Below, in pieces: positions 3,126 through 63,466 of a stretch of 64,000 nt of DNA (positions are counted from its first letter, which is position 1; the number at the start of each line of letters is the position of its first letter). Both the position numbers and the translations under genes were made by a program. A model generated the notes under the pieces. That model was not told where the DNA came from and ran no database searches. It worked only from the letters and a program-made list of their open reading frames with translations. The stretch covers positions 1 through 64,000 of the forward strand of contig MFPR01000012.1 of the NCBI GenBank assembly GCA_001784175.1. Direction: 5' to 3'. This stretch comes from Candidatus Lindowbacteria bacterium RIFCSPLOWO2_12_FULL_62_27. GTDB lineage: Bacteria > Lindowbacteria > 2-12-FULL-62-27.

Positions 3126-4055
3126 TCACCGCTTCGGGCGTGGCCGAACCACGGCCAGCGCGCGGGAATCCGACCACCCACTCACTACCCCGTCGTTCGT
3201 CCACGCGCGTGCGCGCCAGTAGTACATGGCCGGCGGCAGATCGGACGAGAGCACATGCGTCTCCGTGTCGATGGGGTTCGCCTCCGAAGCCGTATCCACG
3301 AAATACCCATTCGCAAACGCCGGCGATGTATCGATCTGGATTTCGTAGCCGTCCGCCGGCATCGTGTCAGGAAACGTGAACACAAACGCCGGTCGCGCCG
3401 AACTACTCTCGCTATTGTTCGCAGGCGAACTCAATTTCGGGGTGTCGTTGAATAGTACATTGATAACGCCGCCTTCCACACGATTTAAAACCGACACCCC
3501 GCGTTTGACAATGGCCGTCGGGAAACTGCCGCATATTGTTTCACCCGGCGCAAAAATATTTGCGAAGCCCATCGTGGAAATTCCCGGCTTAATGGCTCGA
3601 AACACAAGGTCGGCCATCTTCTTGTCGGTGATCGCGCCCGGAGACGAACTTGCCAGCAACCCCAACACGATTGTTCCGGTCGCATTATCGAGAAACGGAT
3701 ACAGGCTGGAAATTTTTGCCGCGACCAAACTTCTCGAACCTCTCGTATCCCAAAATGCCCCCCCGCCTCCTCCGGCAACTTGCGAATCTATTACCCGCAG
3801 TATGCTTGGCGAAAATGTTACATTCGCATATACCTCCGCCGCATGGGTGTCCGTCCTCACATAAACTTTGATCGGTATCGTATTTCCGACGTAGGCAGTA
3901 AGCGGGGACGCGGCAGGAATGGTGTCTCCTGAGGAATTTGTGATCGAGATGGAGCCGGCCGGATAGGCCGCCTGCGATGAACCCTCAGAGCAGACTGAGA
4001 GGGACGCGCCGAGAATAATGGATAGCAATATACGAAATATCGGTTTACCACCCAT
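3126..4055 (-). CDS. Secreted cohesin-like + Fn3 protein (309 aa), short paralog of 1-2247
   Basis: Start at MGGKPIFRILLSIILGA (signal peptide). Cohesin pattern VGNTIPIKVYV...VTFSPSILRVID...DNATGTIVLG...MADLVFRAIKPG. Colinear with the N-terminus of 1-2247 and ends RPRPKR. Confidence 0.8.
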   Translation of the reverse strand: MGGKPIFRILLSIILGASLSVCSEGSSQAAYPAGSISITNSSGDTIPAASPLTAYVGNTIPIKVYVRTDTHAAEVYANVTFSPSILRVIDSQVAGGGGGAFWDTRGSRSLVAAKISSLYPFLDNATGTIVLGLLASSSPGAITDKKMADLVFRAIKPGISTMGFANIFAPGETICGSFPTAIVKRGVSVLNRVEGGVINVLFNDTPKLSSPANNSESSSARPAFVFTFPDTMPADGYEIQIDTSPAFANGYFVDTASEANPIDTETHVLSSDLPPAMYYWRARAWTNDGVVSGWSDSRALAVVRPRPKR

Positions 4056-4325
4056 CTTCGGTTTGCCCCCAATTATCGACGATGACGGACCAATCGCCGG
4101 GGCCGACATCGCCGCTGTTGTTGGAATCCGCGGTCGGATCGGTGGACCCCCAATTATCGACGACCACCGACCAATCGCCGGGGCCGATGTCGCCGCTGCC
4201 GTTCGCGTCGCCCTTGACCAAAGATGGTATCGTAATACCGGCGCCTCCGTTAATGACGCCATTTGCGATGGTAACGCTGACCCTGCGGGTCAAAGCGCCC
4301 GGCGCCTTGATTTCAATCCTATAGT
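4045..4325 (-). repeat. X-module/dockerin-coding direct repeat, copy 2 (other copy ~10301-10580)
   Basis: Near-identical DNA, e.g. gcccccaattatcgacgatgac...gacatcgccgctgttgttggaatccgc...gatgtcgccgctgccgttcgcgtcgcc. Confidence 0.85.
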
Positions 4326-47393: not shown

Positions 47394-49807
47394 ATCTCTT
47401 TCAATTCCGTGATCGGTTCGGTCAGCCAGGGGTCGCGCGCAGCGTCCATGCGGATGATCAGGTTCCGATGCACGGGCGTGGCCTGGCCGAGGATGGAGAA
47501 CGGCGTTCCGGCAAACCGTTCGTAGACGTCGCCCAGATGCGCCTTGTCCACCTCGAACAGGATCCGGCCGTTCGACTCGGAAAACAAAAGATCCGCCGGA
47601 CCGAGGCCGCGTTCGCGGTCCATTCGAACGAGGTCGATCTCCACGCCGGCCCGCGTCGAAAACGCCAGCTCGCACAGAGCCACCGCGAGGCCCCCCTCCG
47701 AAACGTCATGCGCCGACAGGATCAATCCCGACTGCACGCATTCATGAAACCGCCGGTACGTCTCAAATACCCGGTCCGCTTCCAGCCCCGGCGCCGCGCC
47801 ATCCTCCACGCCCAGCATCCGATGAAACGCGCTGCCTCCCAGTTCCCCTTTCGTTTGGCCGGCCAGGCAGATCATGGTGTCCGACCGGCGCAGCGTTGCG
47901 CCCGTTACGTGGTCTTTGCGATCCACGACGCCGAGCGCGGTCACAAGAAGCGTGACGGGGATCGAGCGGGCCGTTCCGCCGGAAACGAAATAATTATGAA
48001 AGGAATCTTTTCCGGAAATGAACGGCGCGCCGTACGTTTCCGCCGCGTGCGACATCCCTTTGACGCATTCGACCAGCCGGCCCAGCTCGTCGGGACGATC
48101 CGGATCGCCCATGCAAAAATTGTCGAGAAGTGCGATCTTGTCGGGATGCGCGCCGGCCACGACCACCTGCCGCACCGCCTCATCCACGGCCGACTGGCCC
48201 ATCCGGTACGGATCGAGAATCCCGTACTGCGGCAAAAGTGACACGCCGATGGCGATGCACTTGGCGGTTCCTTCCGCCCGAACGACGACGCCGTCCTGGG
48301 CATTGTCGCCGCCGGCGCCGGCCAGAGGCTTGAGGACCGTGTTGCCCTGAACCTCAAAATCATATTCGCGGATGACGGGCTCCCGCGAGGCGATGTTCAT
48401 ATCCCCGAGCAGGGACCGGACCCACTGGCGCATATCCCGCCGCGCGGTGGCCGTCCGGTCGAGGGCGGGCGTGGCGGGCGCCACCCCAAGAGACCGGGAC
48501 GCCGGAGAATATTCGGACCGCAGAGATTTCTGCGGCGCCGAGTGGAGGAATTCCACATCAAGGCGGCACTGCCGCTGTCCGGCCGCGAAGACTTCGAGGG
48601 CGGGCGTGCCCGTGATCTCGCCGATTTCGACGCATTCGGTTTCATGCCGCACCGCCAGCCGGTCCAGCGCATCCAGGTCGGCCGGACGGACCGCCATCAC
48701 CATGCGCTCCTGGCTTTCGGAAAGAAAAATTTCCCACGGTTCGAGATTCTCTTCTTTGAGCGGGACGCGGTCCAGATCGACCCGCGCGCCGGCCGCCCGC
48801 GCCATCTCGCCGATGGCGCTTGAGAGGCCGCCGGCGCCGCAATCGGTGATCGCCTCGATGAGCCCCGCCTCGCGCGCTTCCAATATGAAGTCCGTCAGTT
48901 TTTTTTCCTCAATCGGGTTTCCGATCTGAACCGCCTGCCGGTCCGACTCGTGACTCTCGCCGGTCAGGGACGCTGACGAAAAGGTCGCGCCGTGCAGTCC
49001 GTCCCGGCCCGTCCGCGCGCCGGCCACGACAATTTTCAAGCCGGGATACACTGCCTTTGGAATGGCACGAGTCGGAATCAGGCCGGCGGCGCCGCAGAAA
49101 ACCAGCGGGTTGCAGGTGAACCGATCGTCAAAATGAATCGCGCCTGCGACCGTCGGAATGCCCATCCGGTTGCCGTAGTCGCGCACGCCCCTCACCACGC
49201 CGCGGAAAACGCCCAGCGGATGGATCACGCCGCCGGGCAGGGCATCCGGATCGGCGTCCGGCCGGCCGAAACAGAAAACGTCCAGGCTCGCAACCGGTTT
49301 GGCGGCCTGGCCCGCGCCCAGAATGTCCCGGATGACGCCGCCCAGGCCGGTGTTCGCGCCGGCGTAAGGCTCGATCGCGGACGGATGATTATGGGTTTCG
49401 ACTTTCAGGCACGCGGCCGTCGTGTCATCCAGCCGGATGAAGCCGGCGTTGTCGTCGAATGCGCCGAGGACAAATCCGGGCTTTTGCCGCCGGATCCGGT
49501 CGGTGACGCCTTGAATGAAGGTCGCGAAAATGCCGTCCACAATTTCGGTCTTCCGGCCGTTCCGGTGAATGATCCGAGCGTTGAATACGCGGTGCTTGCA
49601 GTGCTCGCTCCACGTCTGCGCCAGGACCTCGATCTCGAGCAGGGTCGGCCGGCGGCTCAGGCTCCGGAAATAATCCTGGATCGCAATGAGGTCGGGGACC
49701 GACAGCGGCAGTTTTCGTTGAGCGCTGAATGCCGCCATCTCGTCGATGGTCTCCACGTCGAGCTGCGGCGCGGCTTCAGGCGATTCCAGAAGCGTCGAAT
49801 CAAGCAT
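47363..49807 (-). CDS. purL: FGAM synthase synthetase subunit
   Basis: QTWSEHCKH, KVETHNHPS, DCGAGG, SESQERM, SGKDS, HDVSEGG. Confidence 0.96.
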   Translation of the reverse strand: MLDSTLLESPEAAPQLDVETIDEMAAFSAQRKLPLSVPDLIAIQDYFRSLSRRPTLLEIEVLAQTWSEHCKHRVFNARIIHRNGRKTEIVDGIFATFIQGVTDRIRRQKPGFVLGAFDDNAGFIRLDDTTAACLKVETHNHPSAIEPYAGANTGLGGVIRDILGAGQAAKPVASLDVFCFGRPDADPDALPGGVIHPLGVFRGVVRGVRDYGNRMGIPTVAGAIHFDDRFTCNPLVFCGAAGLIPTRAIPKAVYPGLKIVVAGARTGRDGLHGATFSSASLTGESHESDRQAVQIGNPIEEKKLTDFILEAREAGLIEAITDCGAGGLSSAIGEMARAAGARVDLDRVPLKEENLEPWEIFLSESQERMVMAVRPADLDALDRLAVRHETECVEIGEITGTPALEVFAAGQRQCRLDVEFLHSAPQKSLRSEYSPASRSLGVAPATPALDRTATARRDMRQWVRSLLGDMNIASREPVIREYDFEVQGNTVLKPLAGAGGDNAQDGVVVRAEGTAKCIAIGVSLLPQYGILDPYRMGQSAVDEAVRQVVVAGAHPDKIALLDNFCMGDPDRPDELGRLVECVKGMSHAAETYGAPFISGKDSFHNYFVSGGTARSIPVTLLVTALGVVDRKDHVTGATLRRSDTMICLAGQTKGELGGSAFHRMLGVEDGAAPGLEADRVFETYRRFHECVQSGLILSAHDVSEGGLAVALCELAFSTRAGVEIDLVRMDRERGLGPADLLFSESNGRILFEVDKAHLGDVYERFAGTPFSILGQATPVHRNLIIRMDAARDPWLTEPITELKEIWKNGLKRHF

Positions 49808-50249
49808 GGCTCACACACCACTCGTGAATAACCGGATTGGCCGCGTCCCGGCGGAACCGCTCCAAAAATTCAGCGGCTGCGGGCACGGCCCGCACATAAA
49901 ACCGGCGGGCGATCCGCAGATCGTTCAGCCGGAATTTTTCCGGGGCGGCGGCGCGGTAATAATTGAGGATCGATTCACGCTCAAGATCGAGCATATTCGG
50001 TTTCAACCGGATGTCGACCCTGGCGTCTCCCTCGAAGTACGGCCGGTCGGAAAAATGCGCGATTTCGCCGACCCCGTCGACCAACGCGTCCAGGAGAAAC
50101 GCCCGCAGCGACCGTTCATCCCCGGAGAAATCCAGCGTGTAGACCCGCGTCTCCCGGAACGTCGCGCCCGCCGGCGCCGGCGTGTGCGTCATCTCGCCCG
50201 CGGCCCGGCTTTCCAGGAAGCGGGACACGACCTCAAGCGTGGACCGCAC
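49800..50249 (-). CDS. purS: Tandem PurS-like FGAM synthase accessory subunit
   Basis: Lies between purC and purL; V.IRLKP..LD and terminal ANPVI pattern of PurS, preceded by a second degenerate repeat (LVDGVGE). Confidence 0.65.
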   Translation of the reverse strand: MRSTLEVVSRFLESRAAGEMTHTPAPAGATFRETRVYTLDFSGDERSLRAFLLDALVDGVGEIAHFSDRPYFEGDARVDIRLKPNMLDLERESILNYYRAAAPEKFRLNDLRIARRFYVRAVPAAAEFLERFRRDAANPVIHEWCVSHA

Positions 50250-50949
50250 CGGCCACCCGACCCAGAACTTCGCTGTAACTGCCCATCACGTCGCCCATGT
50301 CACGCCGGAACCGGTCCTTGTCCAGGATTTTCCCTGTCTCCGTGTCCCACAGTCGGCACGTGTCCGGCGTGATCTCATCCGCGAGGATGATATCCTTTTT
50401 CTGAGGGCACAGGCGGCCAAACTCGAGTTTAAAATCGACCAGCCGGATGCCGATCTTTTTGAAAAATCCGGTGAGGAGATCGTTGACCTGCGAAGCCAGA
50501 AACCGCACCGTGTTCAGTTCCCGGACGGTCGCCAGCCGCATCTCGCGGATGTGCTCCTGCGTGATCATCGGATCGCCCAGCTCGTCGCTTTTGTAATAGT
50601 ACTCAAAAATCGGCGAGGAGAGCAGGCGGCCCTCCTCCCAGCCGGTCCGTTTGGCCAGGCTTCCCGCCACCGTGTTGCGCACGACGACTTCGACGGGAAT
50701 GATCTCGACCCGGCGCACGATCAAGTGCGTGTCGTCCACGTCGCGCACCAGGTGCGTGGGGATGCCGTCCTGTTCGAGCAGGTTCAGGAAATAATAGGTG
50801 AGCCGCTTGTTGATCCGGCCCTTGTCCTTGAACTGCGTCTTCTTTAGCCCGTTGAAGGCCGTCGCATCGTCCTTGAACTCCATCAGAAGCTCGTCCGGCC
50901 GGTCGGTCAGATACAGCCGTTTGGCTTTTCCTTCGTATAGAAGTTGCAT
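50233..50949 (-). CDS. purC: SAICAR synthetase
   Basis: LYEGKAK, FKDDATAFNG, LVDFKLEFG, LADEITPDTCRLWD, DKDRFR. Confidence 0.97.
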   Translation of the reverse strand: MQLLYEGKAKRLYLTDRPDELLMEFKDDATAFNGLKKTQFKDKGRINKRLTYYFLNLLEQDGIPTHLVRDVDDTHLIVRRVEIIPVEVVVRNTVAGSLAKRTGWEEGRLLSSPIFEYYYKSDELGDPMITQEHIREMRLATVRELNTVRFLASQVNDLLTGFFKKIGIRLVDFKLEFGRLCPQKKDIILADEITPDTCRLWDTETGKILDKDRFRRDMGDVMGSYSEVLGRVAGAVHA

Positions 50950-50978
50950 GGTCCTTACCCCCTGTTTCCGCGTATCCT

Positions 50979-51017
50979 CCCTCTCCCGCCTGTGGCGGGA
51001 GAGGGTCGGGGTGAGGG
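50979..51017 (-). repeat. CCCTCACC-CCCTCTCCC REP-like element
   Basis: ccctctcccgcctgtggcgggagagggtcggggtgaggg (reverse orientation). Confidence 0.8.
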
Positions 51018-51042
51018 TGGCAGGTTTCGGTCGTCGCCATCT

Positions 51043-51098
51043 GCCCCCCTCACCTCAATCCTCTCCCCCCTGCGGGGGGAGAGGAGGTGAGTAGTTAC
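51043..51098 (+). repeat. REP-like element; 56-bp inverted repeat partner of 54811-54866
   Basis: 53/56 identity to the reverse complement of 54811-54866 by manual alignment. Confidence 0.85.
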
Positions 51099-51207
51099 GT
51101 TCGTTCTTTGTTCCGGGTAACGGGGGACAGGGCATCTGCCTTTAAGTGAGTGATCTCGCCAGGGCGGGCGGCCAGTGGCCGCGGGCGCGCAAACGGCGGG
51201 CTCAGTC

Positions 51208-51274
51208 ACTCGTAGTCAGGAGGTTCCGGCCTCCTGGTAGATACTCCCGGTCCCATTACCAGGATTATACGAGT
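51208..51274 (-). ncRNA. Purine riboswitch aptamer (guanine-type, C74) upstream of the purC operon
   Basis: ACTCGTA-TAAT-CCTGGT-AATGGG-ACCGGG-AGTATCTAC-CAGGAGG-CCGGAA-CCTCCTG-AC-TACGAGT: P1/P2/P3, GG/CC kissing loops, conserved junctions. Confidence 0.92.
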
Positions 51275-51344
51275 TCGTGATCCAACGTCTGAAATTCCGT
51301 GATCCTCTCCTAACTTGGGCTCGAAATCAAATTTTCGAGCGAGT

Positions 51345-54300
51345 TTATGAGCAACCCAATGTGTTGCCGCAGTTTGTACATTTGTAGCAGGTACCGCTCC
51401 GCACCGTGACGTGGCCGCAGGCGTTGCAGAACGGGGCGTCCGACATCAGCGACGAATGGAATTCGTTCACCACCGCCGTCACGCCCGATTTGCCGTTGCC
51501 GCCGTTCGATTTCTCATCAATGTCCTTATCGTCCGGCGGTTTCACCTGCGCGACGTCCGTGCGTTTGAGGTAATCGACCGCCAGGATTCGAAATATCATA
51601 TCGATGACCGAGGTGGAGTACTTCACGTACGGATGGCCTTCGACTGGACCATAGGGCTGAAACCGGCTGAACGTGAAAGAATCGACATATTCCTCCATCG
51701 GGACGCCATATTGTAATCCGAGGGATACGGCAATCGCGAAACAGTTCATCAGGCTCCGAAAGGCCGCGCCCTCCTTGTGCATGTCGATGAACAATTCCCC
51801 GAGCGTCCGGTCCTCGTATTCGCCCGTGCGCAGATACACCTTGTGACCGCCCACCCGCAGCTCATAGGTGATGCCGCCGCGTTTGCGGGGCAACCGACGG
51901 CGGCGCGGACCGGCCTCCTCCCGGGCCGGCGCGGCGCCGTCCTTCTCCTCATCCACCGGGCGGATCGACACGAGGGCCTGCACGGCTTTGGAGCCGTCCC
52001 GATAGATGGAAATGCATTTGCATCCAAGTTTCCACGCCATCCGGTAAGCCTCTTTCACGTCCTCCACGGTCGCGTCGGCGGGCATGTTGATGGTCTTGGA
52101 AATGGACCCGGAAATAAACGGCTGGGCCGCGGCGATCATCCGAATGTGCGACGGCCAGCCCAGCGCGCGCCGGCCATGGATGCCACAGCGGTTGGCGCAA
52201 TCAAAAATCGGGAGATGGTCCTCTTTGAGGTGCGGCGCAAATTCGATGGTCTGCCAGCCGCAAATGTACTTGTTCGCCGTCTCGATGTCTTCCTTTGAGT
52301 AACCCAGATGATCCAGCAGATTGAAATCGAACCGGGTGAGATCATCCTCCGGCACGCCCAGCCGCAGGAGGGCGGCGCGATCGAACGAGGCGGCAGAAAA
52401 TACCTGCGTCAGGTGCAGGGCGTTCGGCAGCATTTCTTCGATTCTTTTAACGCGGCCGGGGTCAAGACCCTTGCCGATCAGAGACTCCGCATGGATGGCC
52501 GGCGCGCCCTGAAACGTCCCTCGCCCGAGCACATGGTGCGTCACGTCGGCGATCTGGTCGTCCGCGTAGCCGAGCCGCCGGAGCGCCTCCGGAACCGCCT
52601 GGTTCACGATCTTGAAGTACCCGCCGCCGGCCAGTTTCTTGAATTTCACCAGCGAATAATCGGGCTCGATTCCGGTCGTGTCGCAATCCATCAGAAGGCC
52701 GATCGTGCCGGTCGGCGCCAGGACCGACGTCTGGGCGTTCCGGAATCCGAATTTCCGTCCCAGGGCCAGCGCATGGTCCCAGGATGCACAGGCCTCTTCG
52801 TAGAGATAATACGTGAGCAGGTCCTTGTCGATCCCATGGGCGGCGTCCCGATGCATTTCGATGACGTCCAGCATGGCCTCGCGGTTTTTCGAATATCCCG
52901 CAAACGGTCCGTTGACTTCCGCCAGCCGCGCGGACTGCGCGTAGGCGGCGCCGCACATGAGCGCCGTCACGGCCGAGCAGACGGCGCGGCCGCGGTCGGA
53001 ATCATAGGGGATGCCCATGAGCATGAGCAGCGTCCCGAGGTTCGCGTAGCCAAGTCCGAGCGGCCGGTAGTCATGAGAATTTTTGGCGATCTCGGCGGTC
53101 GGATAGGACGCGAAATCCACGATGATCTCCTGGGCCGTCGTCAGGAGTTCCACCGTATGCCGGAATGCGGCCACGTCGAAGGCGCCGTCGGGTTTCAAGA
53201 ATTTGGCCAGATTGATCGACGCGAGATTGCAGGCGCTGTCGTCAAGAAACATGTACTCCGAGCAGGGATTGCTCGCGTTGATCCGGCCGGTCTTCTTGCA
53301 CGTGTGCCACCGGTTGATCGTCGTGTCAAACTGCAGGCCGGGGTCGGCGCACTCCCAGGCGGCGTGGCAAATCCTGTCGAACAGGTCCGGCGCGCGGTAT
53401 TCCTTCGCGACCTTGCCCGACGTCACAAACCGCGTCTGCCAGGCGCCGCCCTCCTCGACCGCCCGCATGAATTCGTCCGGAACGCGCACGCTGTTGTTCG
53501 AGTTCTGGCCGCTCACGGTCTTGTAGGCCTCTCCGTCCATCTCGCCGGAAAATCCGGCGGCGATGATCGCGCGCGCCTTCGCCTCCTCCCGCGCCTTCCA
53601 GGACACGAAGGCCTCGATGTCCGGGTGGTCGGCGTTCAGGATCACCATCTTCGCCGCGCGGCGGGTCGTCCCGCCCGATTTGATGGCGCCGCCGACCTTG
53701 TCGTAAATCTCCAGAAACGACATGAGTCCGGAGGAATTCCCGCCGTTCGAGAGCGGCTCGCCCGCGCCCCGCACGGTCGAGTAGTTGCTGCCCGCGCCGG
53801 AGCCGAACTTGAAAATCTTCATCTCGCGTTTCACGTGCTCCGCCAGGTCCATGAGATCGTCCTTGATCGATACGATGAAACACGCGGAAAGCTGCGGCCG
53901 CGAATACGCGTCCTCGGCTTCGCGGGCGGCGTTCAACCTTTCGTCGTAGCAGAAATTCCCGATGGGACTGCCCTTGATTCCATATTCATGTAAAAGCCCG
54001 CAGTTGAACCAGACGGGCGAATTGAACGCGGAGATCTGGTGGATCAGGAGGTGGGTCAGTTCCATTTCGAAAATGTCCGCGTCCTCTTCCGTGCAGAAAA
54101 TCCGCTGCCGCTCGCCCTCCTGCCGGAGCGTCCGGGCCAGCCGCGTCACCACCTGGCGCGCGCCGGTTTCCATGTCGGTCCCGGGCACGCCGGCCTTCCG
54201 AATGTATTTGGACGCCAGTATGTCGGTCGCAAGCTGTGACCAGAACTCGGGCACCTCGATGTCCTTGAGTTCAAAGACCACCGTGCCGTCCGGATTCAGG

Positions 54301-54458
54301 ATGCGGGATGTCCGCTTCGTCCAGGTGATCTCATCGAACGGATGAATTCCTTTTTTAGTGAACACGCGCGTAAATCGCAGGCCTCTCGGCAAATCCCGCC
54401 TCTGCAGGGCCGGACGAACCCTCCGGCCGGCCACCGGCGTCTGAAGTTTCATGGTCAT
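51345..54458 (-). CDS. nrdJ: Class II (adenosylcobalamin-dependent) ribonucleotide reductase with TSCPD domain and C-terminal Zn ribbon
   Basis: [66 protein letters not shown]-terminal CNAC...CTNCG...GCS. Confidence 0.95.
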
Positions 54459-54601
54459 ATCAAGTCTTTTCGCCCCACCTTCCCCGTTTCTCGACTCTTC
54501 ACTCATTCGCATCCTGATTGGGACCTTCAAAGGAGGGACCACAAGTGAAAGACCTCGCGCGCCATGCATACACCGGCGAACCGCACGCCCGCGAACTCTT
54601 G

Positions 54602-54672
54602 TCACCCGTAGTAGGGAGGTTCCGGCCCCCCTGTAGAAACTCCCGGACCCATTACCAGGATTATACGAGTGA
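54602..54672 (-). ncRNA. Second purine riboswitch aptamer, upstream of nrdJ
   Basis: CACTCGTA-TAAT-CCTGGT-AATGGG-TCCGGG-AGTTTCTAC-AGGGGGG-CCGGAA-CCTCCCT-AC-TACGGGTG; paralog of 51208-51274 with a compensatory change in P3. Confidence 0.88.
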
Positions 54673-54699
54673 ATCTATTTCACATCGCAAACAGTCGGG

Positions 54700-54728
54700 C
54701 TTATACTTGGCTCAAATGCGAATGTCAA
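54700..54728 (-). promoter_or_regulatory. sigma70 promoter TTGACA-17-TATAAG upstream of the nrdJ riboswitch
   Basis: Minus strand TTGACAttcgcatttgagccaagTATAAG, ~27 nt before the aptamer. Confidence 0.7.
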
Positions 54729-54810
54729 GTCAAAAAAGAAACAATTCCGTATCCGGTCAGAAAATTTTTGTTCCAACAGTCAGCCGGCGCACGTAATGTG
54801 GCATCAGAGA

Positions 54811-54866
54811 GTATCTATTCACCTCCTCTCCCCCCGAAGGGGGGAGAGGATTGAGGTGAGGGGGGC
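54811..54866 (-). repeat. REP-like element; inverted partner of 51043-51098
   Basis: gtatctattcacctcctctccccccgaaggggggagaggattgaggtgaggggggc. Confidence 0.85.
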
Positions 54867-54989
54867 CGATGACGGCCGGGTCCATGGCGCCGCAACGAAT
54901 GGTTGTGTTTAGCCTCCTCGACAAATGCCAACCCGATCGCAAGCGCGCTGGCGGTGGGAAAGAATTTTACACAGTTGTTCCCAAAGGAG

Positions 54990-56078
54990 TTATCGTCCAT
55001 TCTCTTTACCTCGGTCCCGTCGCATGGTCTTGAATAACATATCATCATGCTGATAACGGCTTTCGTTTTTATTTCGATTTTGCTCGTGGATTTCCTTCGA
55101 ATACGTTGATTTCCGATTATTCTTTCCAGCAGAAAGATAGGAATAAAAAATGGATTCATCAAGAATGGGGAACAGCCCCATCAATCCCTCATCGAAGAAG
55201 GTGATGCCTATATGATTACGATGGAGTTTTACCAACCACTTTTTCGTCTCTGGCTTCAGAAGGAGATCCCGATGAGAAAGATATTGGCTCGGTTGGACGA
55301 CCGACCCTGTTACTGAGACCGATCCGCTGTTTTTTTCAGAAAATAATAACTGGGGGATGATGTCTTCTCCATACCTTCCGAATAATTCCAGTTTTGATTT
55401 CACAATGTCTTCGAATTCTGTTGCCTTTTCGTCTTCGGCAATGATCACCCTCTTGTAAAAGTACATGAAGTGGTCATAGTCCGTATCGTTGTTTTGTTTC
55501 TCATCGATGTCACGATTATGAAAATATGCAATCATGGCGCTTTCGATGGAATCGGCTTCAGTTGGAAGGGAGTCCAAAAATTTTTTATATTTGGTATGTC
55601 CTGGTGGTGGAGGCCAAATCCCGTGGGTAGTTAGGATATGGCGTGCTGTTTCAGATGGTGTTCCGTATCCATGCCGTGCCGTCTCGATCAGAAAGTCAAT
55701 CACAGAAGGAACCCTTCTGGCGGCATTCATCCCCCAGAAATCGTACAAGTCCGGGTATCGCCGTTCCATATCTTCAAACGATCTGGATGCCAGAAGCGCA
55801 TTTTGTGCTTGTTTGAATAAAGCATGCCCTTCACTTAATTTGGCCCGTTTGGCATCTCTTGTTCCATCGGGACGATATTTCCACATGATGAGTTCTGACA
55901 AATGCAGTGTGTCATCTGCCGGCGTATTCGAATGGGGGTTTGCGGCTATAGAGAATTCATGCGTAGGGGGGATCCATTCCTCATTCATCAGTAATCCTTT
56001 TCTAAAGAGGAACATAAACAAAATAAATAGGACGATTATCATGACTAAACAGAAGCTGAGCAATCGCAGTCTGAACAC
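54990..56078 (-). CDS. Membrane-anchored hypothetical protein, putative immunity protein of the Rhs toxin
   Basis: Start abuts/overlaps the Rhs stop; N-terminal hydrophobic helix LLSFCLVMIIVLFILFMFLF; lower GC like the toxin tip. Confidence 0.6.
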   Translation of the reverse strand: MFRLRLLSFCLVMIIVLFILFMFLFRKGLLMNEEWIPPTHEFSIAANPHSNTPADDTLHLSELIMWKYRPDGTRDAKRAKLSEGHALFKQAQNALLASRSFEDMERRYPDLYDFWGMNAARRVPSVIDFLIETARHGYGTPSETARHILTTHGIWPPPPGHTKYKKFLDSLPTEADSIESAMIAYFHNRDIDEKQNNDTDYDHFMYFYKRVIIAEDEKATEFEDIVKSKLELFGRYGEDIIPQLLFSEKNSGSVSVTGSVVQPSQYLSHRDLLLKPETKKWLVKLHRNHIGITFFDEGLMGLFPILDESIFYSYLSAGKNNRKSTYSKEIHEQNRNKNESRYQHDDMLFKTMRRDRGKENGR

Positions 56079-58324
56079 TACGGGAATAAAGGCGGGAGTG
56101 GGTAGGTGGCTGGAAAATAGTTATATGTCTTACCGATGGCATCAATGCTAAAGCGTGGATACATCCATGACGCCAATGGACCAAGCCCCACATGAATGTG
56201 CGGTTTCGGACCGCCGGGAATCTCAAATCCTACTTGATCAAATAATCCACTTGCCGACGCCAGCCGCGCCACACCCAATGGGTTTATGTCTTTGCCCTCG
56301 AACTTGTTTATTGCTCGAAAATCTGCGGCTCGACCTAAAACATGTAGATTTAACGGTAATTTTATGTCCAAAATGGATTGTTCTGCGGGAGTTTTACTGT
56401 AATAGCCGCTAATAATCTTTTGTTCTTCAAGTGTTCTATCACCACCTGTAACAATGAGATCAATCCCATGCTTGAAAGAAAAAAATCTTAGGCGGGCTAG
56501 TAGTAATTTGCTACTTATTTTGACTCCTTTGGAGAATTGTAGCGGCATAGACAATTTAGGGAATCCAACTGACCCGAATCCGAGAATATCGATTCCCGCC
56601 AATGCCCCTCCTAACGTCCCTGAACTTCCCAATGTGCTTGCCATGCCCGCCAGCAAATGCCAATTTGTTTCGAAATCAAAGGCATCCCATGCCGAGCCGT
56701 CTTCGGAACCGGCGTCGCCATCCAATAGACAATGCGCATATGCCCTGTATCTTGGATTTCCCCTTAATCTTCTACTCTCCTCTTTCCTGAGATTCTCATC
56801 CCTGTAACTTCTCCAGCCCAACATCTCTTTCCAAAATACATCGCATGTTACAATATCCTCCATTCGCTCGTCATTTCTGATCTCATGGCGCAGACCCATC
56901 GCGTCGGTGTTGGACACCGGGTTGTTCCCGAACGCCGCGTAGAGATTGATGCGCGACGGATCGGTCGCCTGCTTGGGTGTTGGGTCCTTTGACACGAACC
57001 TCCTTGCCTGCGCGTCATAAAAACGGTGTCGGAAGTAATACCAGCCAGTGACGGGGTCCTGCATCTTGCCTTGAAATCGCGTGTGATCGACGGAGTCGGC
57101 GGTCTGCATGGCGCCGTAGGGATCGATGGTTTCCAGGCTTTCGAGAAGGTTGCCGAATTCATCGCGGACAACTTTCGTAGGGAGATTCGCGGCAAAGTCC
57201 GAATAGATAGCCGTTTTCCGCGCGGCGAGATTTTCCTTCACGATCACATCGTCCTGCATCCGCGTGGGCGTGTATCGCGCCAGCACGTTGCCGCCGGCAT
57301 CCATCTCCGCCAGAATATTCTCGCTCGTTACGTCCCACACGAACCTTCGGTCGTCATTGACCAGACCCGCGTCTTTCTCGATACGCCGAACCAATCGGCC
57401 CTGCGGATCGTACGTGTAATCGACGCTGACGCGGCCCTTCACGGATTTGATCAGACGGTCGTTCCCATCCCACGTGAAAGTGATCTCCATGCCCTTGACC
57501 GACTTGCCGTTCTTTTTCACCTGTCGCATGGCAACGGCCCGGCCGTTGGCGTCATGCACGTATTCGAAGATTTTGCGCTTGCCATGTTTGCCCTTGACGA
57601 TTTCATCATCGTCCTCGCCATCGTCATCCGCGTCCGGCTTTGCGCCGTGTTTCCCCTTGCCCTTCCCTAGATTGTCCTCGTCGTCGTGGTCTTCGTTGTT
57701 GCCATGTCCCTTGTTTTTTCGTTTCTTGAACGTCACAACCTCGCGCCGCGCCAGACGGTCGGCCGCGTCAAAGGTCTGGGTGATTTCCTCGTCGTTGTCT
57801 GTGATTTTCGTAAGATTGCCGCGCGAGTCGTACGTGTATTGAAAATCGATCCCGTCAGGGCGCGTTGCGCGGATCAGCCTGTCGGAGTTGTCGTACGCGT
57901 AGGTGAATCGTCCCTCACCCCTGCCCTCTCCCCCAAGGGGAGAGGGGGATTCTACGTAGCCGATGGCTCGGCCGCGCGGATCGTATTCCCACGTCCGAAT
58001 GAATATCTGCGCGCCGAGGCGGTGCGTCTGCTTTAAGATCCAGCCGGCTGCGTTGTATTCCTTCTCTACAACCTCGCCGTTGGGAAGCGTCCTCTTTTTT
58101 TCGCGATCCTTGGAGTCGTATTCGATCGCGGTGACGCGGCCCGCTCCATCGACCACCTTAGTCACGTGCCCATGAGGGTCGTACTCGTATCGGACGGAAA
58201 TCCCGGCAAGACCGCTTAGTCCCGTAATCCGGTCTTTGGCATCCGACGTGTAGGCAAGCCCGCCAGCCACTGTACCGGAAAACAATACCACCCGACGCGA
58301 TTTCGAGGGCCGACTCGTCCGCAA
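56078..58324 (-). CDS. N-terminally truncated YD/Rhs-repeat protein with C-terminal M15-like (LAS) Zn peptidase toxin domain
   Basis: YD repeats (YEYDPHG, YTYDSRGN, YTYDPQG); core end YYFRHRFYD...RFVSKDP...NLYAAFGNNPVSNTDAMG; tip VTGGDRT...HVLGRAAD (Hx6D)...HIH. True start uncertain. Confidence 0.85.
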   Translation of the reverse strand: MRTSRPSKSRRVVLFSGTVAGGLAYTSDAKDRITGLSGLAGISVRYEYDPHGHVTKVVDGAGRVTAIEYDSKDREKKRTLPNGEVVEKEYNAAGWILKQTHRLGAQIFIRTWEYDPRGRAIGYVESPSPLGGEGRGEGRFTYAYDNSDRLIRATRPDGIDFQYTYDSRGNLTKITDNDEEITQTFDAADRLARREVVTFKKRKNKGHGNNEDHDDEDNLGKGKGKHGAKPDADDDGEDDDEIVKGKHGKRKIFEYVHDANGRAVAMRQVKKNGKSVKGMEITFTWDGNDRLIKSVKGRVSVDYTYDPQGRLVRRIEKDAGLVNDDRRFVWDVTSENILAEMDAGGNVLARYTPTRMQDDVIVKENLAARKTAIYSDFAANLPTKVVRDEFGNLLESLETIDPYGAMQTADSVDHTRFQGKMQDPVTGWYYFRHRFYDAQARRFVSKDPTPKQATDPSRINLYAAFGNNPVSNTDAMGLRHEIRNDERMEDIVTCDVFWKEMLGWRSYRDENLRKEESRRLRGNPRYRAYAHCLLDGDAGSEDGSAWDAFDFETNWHLLAGMASTLGSSGTLGGALAGIDILGFGSVGFPKLSMPLQFSKGVKISSKLLLARLRFFSFKHGIDLIVTGGDRTLEEQKIISGYYSKTPAEQSILDIKLPLNLHVLGRAADFRAINKFEGKDINPLGVARLASASGLFDQVGFEIPGGPKPHIHVGLGPLASWMYPRFSIDAIGKTYNYFPATYPLPPLFP
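57912..57948 (+). repeat. CCCTCACC-CCCTCTCCC REP-like element, in-frame inside the Rhs gene
   Basis: ccctcacccctgccctctcccccaaggggagaggggg encodes SPSPLGGEGRGEG. Confidence 0.8.
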
Positions 58325-63433: not shown

Positions 63434-63466
63434 TTGACTTATAGACCATTTGGTCTATACTGTCAA
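63434..63466. promoter_or_regulatory. Fully overlapping divergent sigma70 promoters with palindromic operator TATAGACCA-TT-TGGTCTATA
   Basis: Plus strand TTGACT-16-TATACT toward XRE; minus strand TTGACA-17-TATAAG toward the primase; perfect 9-bp inverted repeat at 63440-63459. Confidence 0.75.

Follow-up and report, generated by a model that had tools for sequence, protein, structure and literature searches.

A canonical guanine-type riboswitch, probably duplicated with the purC leader, upstream of a class II ribonucleotide reductase gene in Candidatus Lindowbacteria

Purine riboswitches are known from textbooks as regulators of genes that make, salvage or transport purines, and the guanine riboswitches among them, with B. 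subtilis xpt-pbuX as the type example of guanine-I (RF00167), usually control de novo purine synthesis. The locus described here has a purine aptamer in front of a ribonucleotide reductase (RNR) gene, which raises the question of whether the RNR is under rare guanine control or whether the aptamer is at an early stage of a specificity shift toward a (deoxy)nucleoside, the two possibilities put forward in an earlier, sequence-only reading of this DNA. A cmscan search of the whole 64-kb stretch that was analysed, the window, gave a match to the Purine family RF00167 at 54589-54688 on the minus strand (67.8 bits, E 9.2e-10, model positions 1-102, full length), with no non-canonical pairs flagged, and a second one at 51193-51292 on the same strand with 66.6 bits. 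The gathering score of RF00167 is 37, and these two aptamers are the sole Rfam matches at gathering score in the window; they are spaced by 3,396 nt, and the whole genome (4.39 Mb, 94% complete) contains no other purine riboswitch. The gene downstream of the first is nrdJ by NF005122 (1240 bits, cut-off 859) and TIGR02504 (588 bits, cut-off 400), which bears out the earlier description of a duplicated purine riboswitch upstream of a class II RNR. The coordinates then given, 54602-54672, are exactly the P1-to-P1 core, and the strand, left unstated, is minus. We consider it probable that the nrdJ copy is a functional canonical guanine-I riboswitch that arose by duplication with the purC leader and controls nrdJ, most likely as a translational OFF switch.

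The assembly was checked against contigs of an independent public run (X4), which cover 53634-54760 and 51065-51791 with 0 differences. A contig of run X8 matches 54489-54800 at ~95% identity, differing in 15 of 312 letters, and the contigs of runs X8 and X9 represent relatives that are ~95-98% identical over both aptamer regions. Rfam searches of 50500-55500 at E ≤ 10 revealed no other plausible elements in the nrdJ leader; weak miRNA and scr5239 rows from these searches fall on REP-like hairpins and were rejected as chance matches.

NrdJ displays the Pfam domains Ribonuc_red_2_N, the barrel domain and TSCPD, and no ATP-cone was reported by Pfam at E ≤ 1. Its start codon was picked by alignment with the homologue in the related genome G001, and the open reading frame begins ~145 nt 3' of the aptamer. 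The second aptamer precedes the purine synthesis genes that start with purC, and in the purC-purL interval an ORF at 49800-50060 (minus strand) gives a sub-threshold PurS match (PF02700, E 0.014, 16 bits vs 22.2) and is probably a divergent PurS. The features of both units are collected in Table 1.

Table 1. Positions of the two riboswitch units, their genes and the leader elements in the window (R1, own aptamer model).
Feature	Position	Strand	Basis
nrdJ purine (guanine-type) aptamer	54601-54673	-	RF00167 67.8 bits; R1 90.1 bits
nrdJ aptamer P1	54672-54664/54610-54602	-	folding
nrdJ aptamer P2	54660-54654/54647-54641	-	folding
nrdJ aptamer P3	54632-54626/54619-54613	-	folding
Promoter-like site TTGACA-17 nt-TATAAG, ~27 nt 5' of P1	54700-54728	-	exact pattern match; 0 expected (100 shuffles)
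Switching block CGCGAGGUCUUUCACUUGUGGUCCCUCCUUU	54529-54559	-	MFE and aptamer-enforced folds; best-conserved stretch of the otherwise poorly alignable leader between this genome and G001
Anti-aptamer strand, complementary to P2 5' strand, L2 and P1 5' strand	54498-54525	-	free-state MFE helices 36-43:179-186, 46-49:175-178, 24-32:191-199
Purine-rich Shine-Dalgarno-like stretch GGGGAAGGUGGGG (54473-54485) and spacer to start codon	54462-54485	-	folding
nrdJ, class II B12-dependent ribonucleotide reductase, 1037 aa	51345-54458	-	NF005122, TIGR02504, PF02867, PF08471, PF12637
Paralogous purine aptamer 5' of purC	51205-51277	-	RF00167 66.6 bits; R1 87.6 bits
purC, first gene of purC-(purS-like)-purL-purQ-purF	50233-50949	-	TIGR00081 234 bits vs 190

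The cmscan alignment gives the junctions of the nrdJ aptamer as UAA for J1/2, GUUUCUAC for J2/3 and AC for J3/1, and places U22, U47, U51, A52, C53, A73 and C74 all in the guanine-type state, in agreement with the earlier observation that U22, U47, U51 and C74 are kept. The junctions of the purC copy differ from these solely at variable position 48 (GUAUCUAC). The ligand pocket is made up of U22, U47, U51 and C74, where C74 denotes guanine or hypoxanthine and U74 adenine (PMC9295807); both copies have C74, and U74, the mark of the adenine riboswitches, is found in neither. Loops L2 (AAUGGG) and L3 (CCGGAA) of the nrdJ aptamer keep the GG and CC bases, each loop being 1 nt shorter than the Rfam consensus, and we assume that the L2-L3 loop-loop contact is made. 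With these bases, its three-way junction and its place in a 5' UTR, the nrdJ aptamer resembles guanine-I, as does the position of its sister copy on de novo purine synthesis genes. It is unlike guanine-I in that its target is a class II RNR, L2 and L3 are a base shorter than consensus, the stems are GC-rich and control is predicted at translation and not through an intrinsic terminator.

The two copies had been described as near-identical, with two changes in the nrdJ copy pointed out; the first statement is too strong, since the aptamer cores agree at only 61 of 71 aligned positions (86%). Each of the two aptamers is identical to the G001 purC aptamer at 62/72 positions, so that all three are equidistant at ~86% and the nrdJ copy is old. 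The two changes themselves are real (nrdJ copy vs purC copy: A-U vs C-G for the P3-closing pair 54-72, U.U vs U-A for the last P2 pair, at the top of P2), but both are common. We aligned 38 purine aptamers to our own model, of which the window, G001 and GC-rich metagenome loci contributed 7, G012 contributed 1 and the remaining 30 are the best-scoring from 151 genomes of the phylum of G012, so that high-scoring aptamers and a single phylum prevail in the sample, whose alignment is fitted to the model. In this sample pair 54-72 is C-G in 13 aptamers, A-U in 11, G-C in 7, G.U in 2 and other or gapped in 5, and the last P2 pair is A-U in 13, U.U in 9, U-A in 8, G-C in 4 and gapped in 4; the G001 purC aptamer also has U.U there. 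J2/3 reads GUUUCUAC in 26, GUCUCUAC in 11 and GUAUCUAC in 1, and the J3/1 state of the nrdJ copy (AC) is shared by 30/38. As judged from these sequences, A54-U72 and U.U are ordinary variation outside the ligand pocket. The stem changes specific to nrdJ against both purC aptamers are confined to two adjacent P3 pairs, C-G to A-U and A-U to G-C, and such a change on both sides of two pairs is what selection for structure produces.

How, then, does the nrdJ copy compare with the variants that sense other ligands? 2'-dG-I and 2'-dG-II have C at the U51 position, U51C alone moves a guanine aptamer toward 2'-dG (PMC12342879), 2'-dG-III, guanine-II and xanthine-II have insertions or changes in J2/3 and J3/1, and guanine is the ligand of variants in which U22, U51 and C74 are retained (PMC9295807, PMC12342879). 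The insertions of 2'-dG-III, guanine-II and xanthine-II are absent from the nrdJ aptamer, whose J2/3 is of canonical length (8 nt) and whose J3/1 has 2 nt. No 2'-dG model gave a match at gathering score by cmscan in the 64-kb window. In E-value mode, 2dG-II (RF03165) matched the purC copy only, at 51207-51275 on the minus strand (57.4 bits, gathering 60), 2dG-I (RF01510) gave 18.6 bits (gathering 51) at an unrelated site in the window, and Purine was still the best model for the nrdJ copy. The comparison of the Purine and 2'-dG models by Infernal, proposed with the sequence-only reading, thus speaks for Purine at nrdJ (67.8 bits) and finds the purC copy to be the one closer to 2dG-II, probably because 6-nt L2 and L3 loops and A48 are common to both. 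The purC aptamer comes near the 2dG-II score yet keeps U51; its 6-nt L2 and L3 scaffold, shared with that environmental class, may hint at the type of lineage in which 2'-dG-II arose.

It is accordingly very improbable that the nrdJ copy has shifted, or is shifting, to 2'-deoxyguanosine, guanosine or another guanine derivative in the manner of 2'-dG-I of Mesoplasma florum (RF01510). The gene context does match, as 2'-dG-I is likewise a purine-riboswitch fold before an RNR gene and an OFF switch, the polarity predicted here, but 2'-dG-I has C at the U51 position (PMC12342879), an altered J2/3 and an altered pocket ceiling, and none of those changes is seen here. Its ligand is 2'-dG, it works through transcription termination and its targets are class I RNR genes, which sets it apart from the switch proposed for nrdJ. 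The GC-rich scaffold and the 6-nt L2 and L3 loops are shared with 2'-dG-II, which is known from environmental sequences and whose model the purC sister approaches, whereas 2'-dG-II has C51 and a longer J3/1 in place of the U51 and 2-nt J3/1 of the nrdJ copy, which is better explained by Purine. The retention of U51, where C is the key change in both 2'-dG-I and 2'-dG-II (PMC12342879), the canonical J2/3 (PMC9295807), the guanine-consensus J1/2 and J3/1, the lack of a 2'-dG model at gathering score and the commonness of A54-U72 and U.U in ordinary purine riboswitches therefore leave the proposed (deoxy)nucleoside shift without support. The nrdJ riboswitch opens no new sensor class.

The identity of the nrdJ aptamer, its canonical pocket bases, its gene context, the conserved switching block and the restriction of the association to this lineage are observed; we infer the ligand of the switch, its polarity and the level at which it acts, with the OFF polarity resting on thermodynamic folding of one complete sequence. 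The TTGACA-17-TATAAG site 5' of P1 is a putative promoter; the consensus scanner did not report it because its second hexamer ends in G, and this organism may accept TATAAG as a -10 hexamer. A second exact TTGACA-17-TATAAG lies elsewhere in the window, at 63438-63466 on the minus strand. The leader is more stable than 200/200 shuffles (z -3.58), and no terminator-like hairpin with a U run was found in it. In the unconstrained MFE fold (-99.7 kcal/mol) P1 and P2 are lost and P3 is kept, J3/1 and the P1 3' strand (54612-54602) form an 11-bp helix with UCACUUGUGGU (54548-54538), which nearly repeats the P1 5' strand, 54525-54498 is paired with the first half of the aptamer, and GGGGAAGGUGGGG is largely open (unpaired probability 0.06-0.66). 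When the aptamer is enforced (-94.7 kcal/mol), the freed 54555-54529 pairs with GGGGAAGGUGGGG and the pre-AUG spacer through the helices AGGUCUUU:AAAGACUU, GUCCC:GGGGC and CCUUU:GAAGG, and the unpaired probability is ≤0.07 at 11/13 bases of the Shine-Dalgarno-like (SD) stretch, G212 (0.34) and U220 (1.0) being the others. The 5 kcal/mol gap between the two predicted folds is comfortably within reach of ligand binding together with the unmodelled loop-loop contact. Folding thus predicts for the nrdJ leader a platform structure that is mutually exclusive with P1, the same block alternatively pairing the SD, although the SD-like stretch, at 14-26 nt 5' of the first AUG, is rather distant from it.

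The mechanism that we propose on this basis starts with the duplication of ~135 nt of the purC leader, comprising the aptamer and the start of the platform, to nrdJ, or the reverse. In the ligand-free state the block UCUUUCACUUGUGGUCC... would mimic the P1 5' strand and pair with J3/1 and the P1 3' strand, a further strand would pair with the aptamer's 5' half, and the ribosome-binding site, which is rich in purines, would stay open. Binding of guanine or hypoxanthine would close P1 and free the block, which would then pair with the SD region and the pre-AUG spacer and turn translation off. In the same folding analysis of the purC leaders of this genome and of G001, a downstream mimic of the P1 5' strand invades J3/1 and P1, and the SD or the AUG is paired when the aptamer is enforced; the predicted switch of the purC leader in this genome spans two inserted palindromic repeats.

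The phylum is represented in GTDB by four species genomes of one family. NrdJ of G001 is 77% identical to the protein described here, and the order nrdJ - purine riboswitch - purC is the same. The G001 nrdJ leader keeps the switching sequence TCTTTCACTTGTAGTCC, and nothing else in the leader alignment is nearly as well conserved as the block around this sequence; the G001 leader also keeps the element CAUGAGUCGAG, which would pair with the P1 5' strand. The G001 contig ends ~230 nt 5' of the nrdJ start codon, about where the aptamer should begin, and a lenient search with our own model (E ≤ 10) found no truncated second purine aptamer in G001-G003; our guess is a repeat-induced assembly break before the nrdJ aptamer of G001. 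The G001 leader is ~100 nt longer, and when folded without an aptamer its SD is paired with a different segment, so the mechanism proposed here is not confirmed there. The G001 nrdJ gene itself (G001:C357:29586-32722, L006/L007) is read in two overlapping frames, covering query residues 8-692 and 684-1037, which reflects a frameshift or an assembly error. In the other two genomes, G002 and G003 (91% and 81% complete), neither nrdJ nor a purine riboswitch was found, and their purC homologues are distant (27-30% identity). A search of G002 and G003 for RNR of any class also came back blank (PF02867, NrdD).

Sensing of guanine could operate by some other route than sequestration of the ribosome-binding site, either by Rho-dependent or other transcriptional attenuation or by an ON switch that ties RNR to purine sufficiency, and to this we assign a low but appreciable probability. 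In favour of such a route, the physiology would be easier to account for with an ON polarity, the SD is far from the AUG, the G001 leader differs in length and predicted pairing, and the G001 purC leader has a terminator-like hairpin with a U run. Against it, the nrdJ leader contains no terminator-like site, its switching block shows complementarity both to the P1 3' strand and to the SD and spacer, and the start of the platform is homologous to that of purC, for which guanine repression is the expected polarity. It is improbable that nrdJ is expressed constitutively behind an aptamer without function, left over from a segmental duplication or from an insertion of nrdJ into the purC leader: the invariant junction bases are all intact, two P3 pairs have changed by compensated double substitutions, the equidistance at 86% indicates an old copy and the switching block is kept in G001 where the surrounding leader is not. 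Such an origin would fit the shortness of the duplicated segment and the apparent acquisition of nrdJ, which is not found in G002 and G003 and has its nearest homologues in many other phyla.

Guanine control of nrdJ through a riboswitch, as preferred here, appears to be rare. Our own model R1 found no purine aptamer at the 80 nearest nrdJ loci of other phyla (42-58% identity, many phyla; 69 with at least 340 nt upstream), the lone weak row of 18.4 bits being rejected as it lies inside a coding region, and none of the Rfam families reached gathering score in 20 of those loci. A pattern scan of metagenomes gave no further nrdJ-linked copy, its matches being the contig of the window itself and three unrelated loci whose targets are classical ones. 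The metagenome loci with very similar aptamers carry a xanthine/uracil-family permease (L011, L013, L015) and purE-purK (L013), and some of the aptamers at metagenome loci have G at position 73. One of these loci, L013, has two purine riboswitches, at 2119-2218 and 3956-4056 on the minus strand, before the xanthine/uracil-family permease and purE-purK. The arrangement is like the present one, with two same-strand aptamers on neighbouring operons, 1.8 kb apart there and 3.4 kb here, so that such a pair is nothing special; unlike in L013, where both targets are classical purine genes, the upstream target here is an RNR. The literature search brought up no publication on a canonical guanine riboswitch upstream of nrdJ, and only the Mesoplasma 2'-dG-I switch as a link between the purine-riboswitch fold and RNR, subscription papers and the Rfam gene-context tables lying outside that search. 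From the sequences compared, the nrdJ element is a canonical purine riboswitch with a new, lineage-restricted target. The suggestion of rare guanine control of nrdJ is upheld by the canonical aptamer on the same strand directly upstream, the promoter-like site, the predicted platform that would sequester the ribosome-binding site and the absence of an aptamer at the 80 nearest loci.

As for its physiological role, nrdJ is the only RNR found in this genome (sole PF02867 matches). No NrdD was found in the 4 genomes of the phylum and no NrdR either, whereas the control search for NrdR was positive in 9/14 reference genomes. Genes for HGPRT and the PNP family are present, and no match to the deoxynucleoside kinase family was found, which leaves unsupported the idea that guanine signals a deoxynucleoside salvage that replaces RNR. 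It is not obvious what physiological sense there would be in turning down the only RNR at high guanine, and no deoxynucleoside salvage kinase was found to compensate. A translational switch of this type would tune RNR output and not abolish it. We tentatively suggest, as a possibility that we hold less likely than the regulatory role itself, that in a lineage without NrdR, and for an NrdJ without ATP-cone, the duplicated guanine riboswitch took over as gene-level regulator of the only RNR, so that dNTP supply and de novo purine synthesis are throttled by the same purine-base signal, with the 86%-identical paralogs possibly tuned to different thresholds. If guanine control of nrdJ is true, the guanine regulon extends to DNA-precursor synthesis through a pocket-canonical aptamer on the sole, essential RNR, and RNA-based control stands in the usual place of NrdR. 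As old paralogs within a single genome, with the same expected ligand but different targets and platforms, the two aptamers offer a clean natural comparison of how changes in aptamer and platform set the response.

Neither a terminator-like site nor a convincing promoter was found between nrdJ and the purC aptamer in this genome; a promoter-like site at 51293-51264 was rejected, its TATAAT being the purC aptamer's own J1/2. Co-transcription of nrdJ and purC is possible on this sequence. In G001 the spacer between nrdJ and the purC aptamer contains a TTGACA-17-GACAAT site, and the G001 purC leader contains the hairpin mentioned above. Since both switches look translational, each would gate its own cistron, in parallel and not as the serial gates on one long transcript that the sequence-only reading had considered.

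Just upstream of the nrdJ promoter-like site lie a 362-aa ORF without family match (54990-56078) and, before it, an Rhs/YD-repeat protein with an RHS-associated core (56078-58324, minus strand), a region that may be the tip or immunity region of a polymorphic toxin. GC-rich palindromic repeats of the form CCTCTCCCCCC-GNNA-GGGGGGAGAGG occur at 54811-54871 (plus strand), 51035-51098 and 50975-51020 (both minus strand), flanking both riboswitch units, with two of them inside the purC leader. A variant of the palindrome with 7-N spacing has 17 sites on 12 contigs genome-wide, vs 0 for the reversed control, and the repeats look like a REP-like dispersed element.
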